64,000 nt of DNA, from positions 21,222 to 85,221 of the forward strand of contig CAJUBT010000005.1 of NCBI GenBank assembly GCA_910584815.1, read 5' to 3'. Source of the stretch: an uncultured Christensenella sp. Lineage in GTDB: Bacteria; Bacillota; Clostridia; Christensenellales; UBA1242. The notes beneath the pieces were generated by a model. It made no database searches. It saw nothing but the letters and a program-made list of their open reading frames with translations, and had not been told where the DNA came from. Every line of letters begins with the position of its first letter. Positions within the stretch are counted from its first letter, which is position 1. The translations under genes were made by a program, and so were the position numbers. This document shows positions 27,936 through 28,998 of this stretch, piece by piece.

Positions 27936-28285
27936 TTAGGCAAATATGTTGTAGTAATAAACATATTGCAGTTAATATGTCCCCTACTCGCCTATTAGAT
28001 GCCATTAAAATGGCAGGCTCGCCACCGTTGCGACCTTCCCTAGCCTTGGTCGCTTTTAATTGGTTATTTAAAATATTTTGGACGCTGTCCAAACCTGCAA
28101 GGAACTAGTCCCTTGACCCCTTTCACACTCGACCGTGTAGGCAATCCTTCCCCGAATTATGTCGGGGAAGGAAATTAATATTATATTCTACCCCATCTTG
28201 TCAAAGGGTGAACATAAAGCAACCATCAATGCTGGCTATTCTTGTTTATCATTCCCCTTTATCTTTGACAAGATATAGTTTTTTA
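27899..28285. other. GC-enriched, hairpin-dense non-coding block (phage intergenic region, or a structured RNA/ssDNA element)
   Basis: Visibly much more G+C than the surrounding DNA. Multiple stems: the 27899-27935 hairpin, GCGACC/GGTCGC (28030-28053), TGGAC/GTCCA (28079-28091), CAAGG/CCTTG (28098-28115), CCTTCCCCG/CGGGGAAGG (28146-28171), and long-range ATCTTGTCAAAGGG (28195-28208) with CCCTTT..TTGACAAGAT (28255-28274). The ORFs here are short and overlap on both strands. Confidence 0.5.
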
Positions 28286-28294
28286 CGATATAAT
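28265..28294 (+). promoter_or_regulatory. Near-consensus sigma-A promoter for the DUF2726-like gene
   Basis: -35 TTGACA 28265-28270, 18-bp spacer, -10 TATAAT 28289-28294. RBS AAAAGGGA before the ATG at 28330. Confidence 0.6.
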
Positions 28295-28329
28295 TAGCAT
28301 AAGTAATTATAAAAGGGACAAATTAAGAA

Positions 28330-28998
28330 ATGAAAAATATTGAATATTATCAAAAAAAATTAAAAATTTATTCAATAGCAAGATGGTCATTAATAGGATT
28401 TGGTTTAGCATTATTCTTAATTGAATTTACACTTAGCCTTAATGGCATTGATTTATTTACAGTTTTAGGCTATATAGGAGTTATTATAGGAATAATTGCT
28501 ATAATAATCGGTTTTGCTTTTGGAAGAATAATAATAAAAACATTAGAACATATAGAAAAATTGAAAACAATAACAGAAGCCATAGAAGATAGTAAAGGAA
28601 ACGAAATAGATATAAATAAGTATGAAAGTAAAAAATTAATAACTGATAATGAAAATTTTTTTTATAACATAATAGAAAATAACTTTGGGAATAAATATAA
28701 AGTTCAAACACAAATTTATTTAGGGGCTATTGTAAATAAGAAAAAGAAGTTTCCTAGTGAATACCAAAACGAACTAAATAAAACAATAGACTTTGGCATT
28801 TTTGATAAAGGAACATTATACCCTTTATTATTAATTGAAATAAATGATAAAACCCACTCGGAAACTAAAAGAATTGAAAGAGATAAGAAAGTCAAAAAGA
28901 TTTGTGAGTTAGCAAATTTAAAACTAATTTCATTTCCAGCATACGAAAAAGATGAAAATTATATTATAGAAAAGATAGAAAGAGAACTAAAAATTTAG
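28330..28998 (+). CDS. Membrane-anchored DUF2726-like (PD-(D/E)xK nuclease-fold) protein; the only + strand gene in the prophage
   Basis: 222 aa with two N-terminal TM helices and a charged linker. The C-terminal ENNFFYNII...YKVQTQIYLGAIV...IDFGIFDKGTLYPLLLIEINDKTHSETKRIERDKKVKKICELANLKLISF matches the DUF2726 pattern (vDFvi.d...p.laIElDd.sH...rD...aGi.li) as I remember it. Confidence 0.55.
   Translation: MKNIEYYQKKLKIYSIARWSLIGFGLALFLIEFTLSLNGIDLFTVLGYIGVIIGIIAIIIGFAFGRIIIKTLEHIEKLKTITEAIEDSKGNEIDINKYESKKLITDNENFFYNIIENNFGNKYKVQTQIYLGAIVNKKKKFPSEYQNELNKTIDFGIFDKGTLYPLLLIEINDKTHSETKRIERDKKVKKICELANLKLISFPAYEKDENYIIEKIERELKI

Follow-up and report, generated by a model that had tools for sequence, protein, structure and literature searches.

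Within a 64,000-nucleotide stretch of DNA from an uncultured Christensenella sp. (contig CAJUBT010000005.1, positions 21,222 to 85,221), hereafter called the window, an integrated element occupies approximately positions 27085-34328. The element is 7.2 kb long, is bounded by dif-like repeats and has the same G+C content (26%) as the window, which uses the standard bacterial genetic code and encodes LexA. Its pI/Zot-type P-loop gene, small transmembrane (TM) coat genes and rep gene, its length of about 7 kb and the existence of a circular relative identify it as an inovirus-like prophage. We focus here on a gene for a protein that joins an N-terminal membrane anchor to a C-terminal domain of the family DUF2726. 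As originally predicted for this DNA, the gene is the sole plus-strand gene of the element, at least among genes that are conserved. The positions of all features are collected in Table 1.

Table 1. Features of the prophage and its surroundings, numbered from the first nucleotide of the window (aa, amino acids; ORF, open reading frame).
Feature	Position	Strand	Evidence
Tyrosine recombinase (xer-like) gene near attL	22969-24015		
CD-NTase-like gene	25717-26613	+	PADLOC cyclase model, NCBIfam
attL, dif-like palindrome AACTATTCGCAAAAC-TTGA-GTTTTGCGAATAGTT	27066-27100		
Rolling-circle Rep-like gene, 225 aa, EHYHAVV motif	27231-27908	-	Weak match to Pfam REP_ORF2-G2P (E = 0.0023, below cut-off)
GC-rich structured intergenic block between rep and the DUF2726 gene, with rep-side promoter	27909-28264		42% G+C, hairpins
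Sigma-70-type promoter of the DUF2726 gene	28265-28294	+	TTGACA at 28265-28270, 18-nt spacer, TATAAT ending at 28294
Coding sequence for the membrane-tethered DUF2726 protein, 222 aa	28330-28998	+	ORF, 116 homologues, Pfam, phrog_14167
Predicted membrane anchor: TM1 (residues ~19-37), short loop, TM2 (residues ~44-68)	28384-28533	+	AlphaFold helices, hydrophobicity scan
DUF2726 / predicted restriction-endonuclease-fold domain, residues 101-216	28630-28977	+	Pfam, invariant columns, AlphaFold, Foldseek
Candidate bidirectional terminator: 14-bp hairpin across both overlapping stop codons, then U-run	28977-29008		Terminator scan, RNA folding
Inovirus-like structural/morphogenesis module, ~twelve genes	28995-34084	-	ORFs, P-loop matches, pI profile
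pI/Zot-like P-loop protein, 333 aa	32255-33256	-	P-loop matches; Zot Pfam match weak, below cut-off
Second attP-type site	34187-34210		
attR, dif-like, sharing the 17-nt direct repeat GTTTTGCGAATAGTTTA with attL	34295-34328		

The ORF for the DUF2726 protein is a real gene. A database search recovered 116 homologues (E ≤ 1e-3), the PHROGs family phrog_14167 is matched with E = 2.2e-11 (its annotation is ‘function unknown’), and we estimate that an open frame of 222 codons is very unlikely to arise by chance in DNA of 26% G+C (~1e-9 per frame start). The promoter, previously described as a near-consensus TTGACA-18-TATAAT element, agrees with the consensus at all 12 of 12 positions and is the only such match across the 7.9-kb region scanned. 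From this promoter the gene diverges from rep across the structured block, as had been proposed; the block is intergenic DNA of 42% G+C in a prophage of 26% G+C.

At its distal end, the gene overlaps its convergent neighbour as originally described: the two stop codons share the tetranucleotide ttag at 28995-28998 (plus-strand TAG at 28996-28998; minus-strand stop of the 573-aa ORF at 28995-28997). The accompanying claim that no terminator is present, which had been taken to imply transcriptional interference, is contradicted by a hairpin and U-run that span both stops. The hairpin has a predicted free energy of -21.2 kcal/mol in the plus-strand transcript (z = -4.1, with none of 200 shuffled sequences as good) and of -14.9 kcal/mol in the minus-strand transcript (z = -3.9). 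A search against Rfam returned only a sub-threshold match to ‘mir-1252’, which is this hairpin, and no RNA gene within the structured block. The DUF2726 gene is thus equipped with its own consensus promoter and its own candidate terminator, and is antisense to all other phage genes.

Additional evidence that the gene belongs to the phage is provided by a MEGAHIT contig, L001, whose 141-bp terminal overlap closes it into a 7,472-bp circle. This circle is colinear with window positions 27070-34351 at 72-77% nucleotide identity, and both share the order of a minus-strand rep-like gene, the GC-rich structured block, a plus-strand DUF2726 gene and approximately twelve minus-strand genes. It also holds both att-type sites (positions 134 and 215), about 80-110 bp apart. 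The same TTGACA-18-TATAAT promoter and ribosome-binding context lie upstream of the orthologue in L001, and the terminator hairpin is conserved there as well. The presence of the same gene, promoter and hairpin in a circular genome indicates that the DUF2726 gene genuinely belongs to a replicating filamentous-phage-like genome. The other plus-strand ORFs of the window element (40-74 aa), including one of 74 aa within the structured block, have no protein-level counterpart in L001.

The C-terminal region of the protein matches the Pfam family DUF2726 (PF10881) with E = 3e-15 and 56.5 bits, against a cut-off of 24.7, over model positions 2-123 of 126. Two TM helices, a linker and a C-terminal DUF2726 domain had been predicted, and the same organization is seen in the full-length AlphaFold model (predicted local distance difference test, pLDDT, 88), in which helices at residues 2-37 and 45-90 precede a compact domain. 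When modelled alone (residues 95-222; pLDDT 93, predicted template modelling score 0.85), the domain presents a helix, three strands, helices, a strand and a helix, an order that corresponds to an alpha-beta-beta-beta-alpha-beta core. Foldseek comparison of the model with the PDB gave BstEII (E = 3.6e-5), TnsA, the BpuSI nuclease domain, 3ijm and a RAP module as top matches, with probabilities of 0.99-1.00 for BstEII and TnsA. Among the predicted viral structures of BFVD, the matches are annotated as DUF2726, DUF559, ‘restriction enzyme’ and ‘VSR homing endonuclease’, with template modelling scores (TM-scores) as high as 0.68.

Alignment of 28-34 homologues revealed eight invariant charged residues: E108, D154, E170, D173, H176, R181, R184 and D185. 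The conserved acidic positions map to the predicted core, with a glutamate on helix 1, an aspartate on strand 2 and an E..D..H series past strand 3, an arrangement that we take to be that of the Vsr/DUF559 clade. In a published survey, DUF2726 is placed alongside Vsr/DUF559 within the PD-(D/E)XK superfamily (PMC3424549). The C-terminal domain is therefore predicted to adopt a restriction-endonuclease fold related to Vsr/DUF559, which agrees with the fold assigned in the original prediction, and on this structural basis nuclease catalysis is plausible. Scans with Pfam, PADLOC and NCBIfam detected nothing besides the TM segments and DUF2726, and no cyclic-nucleotide sensor such as SAVED or STING; NCBIfam by itself gave nothing meaningful. 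No helix-turn-helix (HTH) family of Pfam or NCBIfam is matched either, and the model consists of TM helices and a nuclease fold. A wider profile search collected 360 clusters at E ≤ 1e-30 and approximately 4,500 at E ≤ 1e-10, counts that take in the wider DUF2726 family.

The attachment of this domain to a hydrophobic N-terminus is common among its relatives. One to three TM-like segments precede the domain in 84 of the 116 homologues, and a TM-like N-terminus is found in 103 of 133 further cluster representatives (50% identity). Among the 116, most homologues that lack TM segments instead have an amphipathic stretch of 12 residues at their start (for example MGFFDFLCDLFG), and acidic residues come next. 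This amphipathic motif may be an alternative membrane-targeting device. Examples include P0034, P0042, P0053, P0157 and P0223, in which the MGFFDFLCDLFG start often contains cysteine and an acidic run comes after it.

The lysine/arginine counts along the window protein (4 / 0 / 2 in the hydrophobicity scan) favour a topology with both termini inside, and a crude positive-inside count places the nuclease domain in the cytoplasm for 73 of the 84 TM-bearing homologues. A long helix (residues 45-90 of the model) continues as a linker past the TM region. We infer from these features that the nuclease domain is held on the cytoplasmic side, about one long helix away from the membrane. The anchor is fast-evolving, with a variable hydrophobic N-terminus on a conserved C-terminal domain: between the window and L001 it is unalignable (~21% identity) and differs in TM number, whereas the DUF2726 domains are 66% identical and the core phage proteins 71-84% identical.

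To describe the genomic company of the gene, 86 loci were used. These loci were picked because they encode a homologue, and thus the proportions describe the neighbourhoods of homologues and not genomes at large. A pI/Zot-like gene, recognized with a locally built pI profile, resides within the flanks of 20 of the 86 loci; in 18 of 19, the DUF2726 gene runs antisense to this pI-like gene. Three layouts with two types of Rep (G2P-like and Rep_trans-like) carry the DUF2726 gene, and in at least three inovirus lineages the only gene in antisense orientation is one for its membrane-tethered form. A DUF2726 family has also been catalogued among inoviruses, as iPF_00070 with 176 sequences and the function ‘Unknown’ (Roux et al. 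2019; PMC6813254, Supplementary Table 5).

Two loci illustrate transfer of the gene and its retention. In L086, an inovirus from IMG/VR, the DUF2726 gene has 24% G+C in a genome of 41% G+C, a mismatch that marks a recent transfer. There it forms the middle of a same-strand trio (1546-2747, plus strand), preceded by a 92-aa ORF of 30% G+C that by eye is ribbon-helix-helix-like and followed by an 81-aa ORF that by eye is coiled-coil-like. This trio may be a regulator or antitoxin context; it is not seen in the window. In L009 (9658-10600), a dif-like site is followed by an intact DUF2726 gene with a plausible promoter, a 61-aa stub of the rep C-terminus (E = 1e-16) and then the host gene YgjP; one arm of the dif-like site is mutated to TTTTACGAAT, and no other phage genes are left. 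At this locus the phage has decayed and the DUF2726 gene has been retained. That the L009 copy might be an ancestral host gene, later captured by phages, was rejected because of the adjacent rep stub. The DUF2726 cassette is thus a horizontally moving one, present in several inovirus lineages that are unrelated to one another, and it outlasts prophage decay.

Among the loci without phage genes, a group of nine (L036, L039, L040, L043, L055, L069, L070, L072 and L084; at ~6.8-9.5 kb within each locus) has the DUF2726 gene diverging from a gene for a TM protein of 885-1009 aa. These large proteins contain Listeria-Bacteroides (Flg_new) repeats, which are also present in the adsorption protein of the L003-type inovirus, and because of this shared repeat the loci may be older phage remnants. 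Because 26 loci have an xer-like gene in their flanks, a functional link to Xer was considered. However, outside the host clade of the window no dif-like palindrome is found near the gene, and the xer-like neighbours look like ordinary conserved synteny (xerD-deoB, glyA, glmM); we therefore treat the association as incidental.

The DUF2726 gene is best explained as a self-contained accessory gene (a ‘moron’) of a temperate inovirus-like prophage residing at the chromosomal dif site. Regarding what it does, we tentatively propose, with the case for and against close to balanced, that the prophage expresses a membrane-confined, cytoplasm-facing nuclease that attacks incoming DNA during its entry into the cell. 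The DUF2726 domain would be an active, magnesium-dependent deoxyribonuclease (DNase), and its target would be DNA crossing the membrane, such as the genome of a superinfecting filamentous or tailed phage or possibly other incoming DNA. Confinement to the membrane would spare the chromosome, and both the lysogen and its resident prophage would be protected. The hypervariable N-terminus would set the location of the enzyme or determine which entry machinery it meets. The intact gene that persists without its phage in L009 we count in favour of this proposal, as a sign that the gene is useful without the phage.

An experimental precedent for such a mechanism is offered by a different membrane-bound nuclease. 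In SNIPE (PD-lambda-1) of E. coli, a GIY-YIG nuclease faces the cytoplasm from a membrane anchor, and the N-terminal region is poorly conserved. The enzyme cuts phage DNA while this is being injected, and removal of the TM segment renders the enzyme toxic (Saxton et al., Nature 2026; PMC13190303). Both SNIPE and the window protein are single polypeptides in which a poorly conserved N-terminal anchor, with a variable number of TM segments, precedes a conserved C-terminal nuclease domain. The nuclease faces the cytoplasm in both (as shown for SNIPE and predicted here), some homologues replace the TM segments with other membrane-targeting segments, and the proposed rule for telling self from non-self is location. 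However, the folds are unrelated (GIY-YIG as opposed to DUF2726 / PD-(D/E)xK), and the window protein is much smaller (222 aa) and has no DUF4041 DNA/tape-measure-binding domain according to Pfam and PADLOC. Furthermore, SNIPE was found in an E. coli screen, whereas the window gene comes from a filamentous prophage of a low-GC gut Firmicute. The window protein may thus work like SNIPE while standing outside the SNIPE family. A bolder version of the proposal, which we advance with considerable reserve, is that membrane-tethered DUF2726 proteins constitute a second, independently evolved form of location-based nuclease immunity, built on a Vsr/restriction-endonuclease fold and carried as a mobile single-gene cassette by filamentous phages of gut Firmicutes, with the N-terminus setting the entry route that is guarded.

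Several observations weigh against a membrane-confined nuclease that acts on incoming DNA. The original prediction named putative catalytic residues of the PD-(D/E)xK type, and although an invariant set of acidic, histidine and arginine residues is present, the canonical lysine is absent: the sequence reads E170-I-N172, followed by the invariant D173 and H176. Since N172 replaces the classical lysine, we assume a catalytic chemistry analogous to that of the Vsr/DUF559 clade. Solved nucleases are matched by Foldseek with TM-scores of just ~0.5, and when the PDB was searched by sequence, either with the single protein or with a profile, only chance matches were obtained (e.g. ATP synthase b, Ctf4). 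The topology count runs the other way in 9 of the 84 TM-bearing homologues, and several single-TM forms are ambiguous by this crude method. There is no obvious DNA-binding or sensor module comparable to the DUF4041 domain of SNIPE, and no PADLOC model matches the protein. Co-occurrence with inovirus modules, a survey of which had been suggested, is seen in the loci described above, whereas most of the more distant homologues are phage-less chromosomal singletons amid housekeeping genes. At 36 phage-less chromosomal loci, housekeeping genes (MnmA, XerC/D, Mur ligases, histidine biosynthesis, ZIP) make up most of the four nearest neighbours, and a defence-island signal looked for among them was not found, with few matches to defence models. 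Finally, a tblastn search of 50,697 deposited phage genomes returned no homologue. Overall, what had been observed from the sequence is partly confirmed, and its interpretation is partly supported.

Other explanations were weighed, each of which is weaker than that of a membrane-confined DNase. The protein could be an addiction toxin or abortive-infection effector, in which a nuclease parked at the membrane is released or activated on prophage loss or infection and degrades the DNA of its own cell, such that the prophage is stabilized or infected cells are killed. The toxicity of SNIPE after removal of its anchor (PMC13190303), the commonness of toxin-antitoxin pairs in inoviruses (PMC6813254) and the resemblance of the L086 trio to an antitoxin-toxin layout point in this direction. 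However, no partner ORF accompanies the gene in the window, L001, L003 or L009, where it is a solitary gene with a promoter of its own. The promoter is of a consensus, constitutive type, and no release or sensor domain is evident, which makes such a function unlikely. The gene is also intact in L009, where no phage is left to be stabilized. This same copy speaks against an enzyme of the phage life cycle, either one that resolves junctions or nicks DNA for Xer/dif integration, excision or replication, or a non-catalytic tether for phage DNA at the membrane assembly site. A role of this kind would suit a dif-integrated prophage whose gene adjoins attL in one layout, and PD-(D/E)xK enzymes include junction resolvases and TnsA, the latter being a Foldseek match. 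Moreover, filamentous phages are assembled at the membrane. We nevertheless consider it improbable because hundreds of phage-less homologues reside amid housekeeping genes, no homologue occurs among the inoviruses of the deposited phage collection, and the antisense orientation, separate promoter and foreign G+C content (in L086) are hallmarks of an accessory rather than a core gene.

The CD-NTase-like gene upstream raises the idea of a CBASS-like effector (CBASS, cyclic oligonucleotide-based antiphage signalling system), whereby the cyclase would sense infection and a nucleotide signal would activate the membrane nuclease. This gene matches the PADLOC CBASS oligonucleotide-cyclase model (E = 4.8e-18) and an NCBIfam anti-phage nucleotidyltransferase model (E = 4.9e-13, far below the cut-off of that model), and cyclase and DUF2726 genes are same-strand neighbours in L002-L007, L009 and L013. 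However, the cyclase gene lies outside attL with no recognizable effector beside it, and the two genes are separated by an att site, rep and the intergenic block in the window and by a hairpin with a T-run (a terminator by eye) and a dif-like site in L009. Their pairing occurs in only 10 of the 86 loci, all representing one lexA-xer-dif locus of a single host clade, between xer and the dif-like site, whereas L001 and L086 carry the DUF2726 gene without any cyclase. Given that the DUF2726 protein also has no nucleotide-sensor domain, we take the proximity of the two genes to be accidental, both of them adjoining dif, and give signalling between them very little credence. An outward-facing nuclease that degrades extracellular DNA, be it for transformation, in biofilms or from phages before entry, is likewise highly improbable. 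Membrane-bound extracellular nucleases are known in Firmicutes, and some single-TM homologues (9 of the 84) have more lysine and arginine before the TM segment than after it. Two transposon insertions in a distant DUF2726 gene of Avibacterium also raised biofilm formation (PMC13119452). These points are countered by the two TM helices and charge distribution of the window protein, by the cytoplasmic score of most homologues, and by the amphipathic-helix variants, which have no signal peptide and cannot be exported.

The proposed nuclease can also be compared with systems closer to it in fold or in genomic position. It passes the Pfam threshold and shares with the Vsr/DUF559 clade the order of core elements and the predicted placement of E / D / E..D..H, and Vsr-type (‘EDxHD’) homing endonucleases are among the viral structural neighbours of its domain. 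However, those relatives that have been characterized are soluble proteins with DNA-binding or zinc-finger modules, whereas the window subfamily has a membrane anchor only. Unlike the homing endonucleases, its N-terminus is an anchor and its gene is free-standing with its own promoter, neither intronic nor inside a target gene. The catalogued family iPF_00070 establishes that DUF2726 is recurrent in inovirus genomes, but the catalogue gives no architecture, position or hypothesis. One member is flagged as TM-containing and three have a topoisomerase zinc finger, and the family may therefore be mostly a different, soluble subfamily.

Temperate inoviruses carry immunity genes such as rstR of CTXphi and the Pf4 repressor gene, and the original prediction placed the DUF2726 gene in exactly their position. 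Within the window layout the parallel holds, in that a lone gene diverges from the replication gene across a regulatory intergenic region of a dif-integrating filamentous phage. The other layouts, from other inovirus lineages, have the end of rep on one side of the gene and the start of the structural operon on the other (with the gene adjoining attL in layout B), and thus the ‘rstR position’ fits only one of the three. The window protein also has neither an HTH nor any other DNA-binding repressor fold. A different parallel is found in the membrane-associated superinfection-exclusion proteins of temperate phages (Sie2009, Ltp, T4 Imm and PfsE of Pf), which like the protein proposed here are small, prophage-expressed membrane proteins guarding the lysogen at the step of DNA entry. 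To our knowledge, these proteins block receptors, pili or injection, and none is a nuclease.

If the proposal is correct, membrane anchoring as a cue for self versus non-self was reached at least twice with unrelated nuclease folds, and SNIPE is not a one-off. A function would be provided for a sizeable protein family that has had none, and for an inovirus family labelled ‘Unknown’ since 2019. It would likewise reveal how lysogens are protected by the filamentous phages of gut Clostridia and Bacilli, which have barely been studied. A small protein from a single gene is easily tested. Should the proposal prove wrong, the gene still serves as a clean marker for a new group of Gram-positive inoviruses that integrate at dif.

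The integration site is itself informative about the lifestyle of this phage. The dif-like palindrome at the prophage (ACTATTCGCAAAAC..GTTTTGCGAATAGT) is situated at the apparent replication terminus. The sign of the GC skew changes within 27-40 kb of the window, and the combination of this switch with the dif-like site and a nearby tyrosine recombinase gene makes the site look like the chromosomal dif into which the element has inserted. A search for transfer RNAs (tRNAs) and transfer-messenger RNA (tmRNA) found none serving as an integration site. These sequence features suggest a filamentous phage of a low-GC Firmicute that integrates in an Xer-dependent manner, with a lifestyle like that of CTXphi. 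The attL site recurs in L002-L009, L013 and L014, again on the left side of the DUF2726 gene, and the dif-like site is occupied by different inoviruses in L002-L007, L013, L014 and L016.

The structured block is probably the origin or packaging region, to judge from its sequence. It has hairpins in it or at its edge (27900-27937 and 28145-28172), and comparison with L001 (27900-28264 versus 1040-1290) reveals a nearly identical 42-nt core, TTGGACnCTGTCCAAACCTGCAAGGAACTnGTCCCTTGACCC, and a ~130-bp insertion in the window. One hairpin shows a compensatory change from C-G to G-C (GGACGTCCACC/GGTGGACGTCC in the window versus GGACGTGCACC/GGTGCACGTCC in L001). The two divergent promoters (28198-28208 on the minus strand and 28262-28271 on the plus strand) have a common -35 context, CTTTGACAAG, whose two copies form an inverted repeat with a separation of about 60 bp; both copies are conserved in L001. 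A search for LexA (Cheo) boxes found none near these promoters, and their total count was at the chance level.

The Rep-like protein is 71% identical to its L001 orthologue, and the proteins of the structural module are 52-84% identical to their counterparts there. The module encodes a 573-aa pIII-like protein, small TM proteins, a 79-aa coat-like protein and, as its first gene, an 89-aa protein. The local pI profile unites the pI-like protein of the window with those of L001-L007, L013, L086 and others. A secretin gene is absent from both the window prophage and L001, which would fit a host without an outer membrane. Hypervariable spots other than the DUF2726 anchor are the N-terminal and central parts of the pIII-like protein (28995-30716, minus strand), which are 23-47% identical to L001 while its C-terminus is 55-88% identical, and an 84-aa ORF (31985-32239, minus strand) that has no L001 counterpart.

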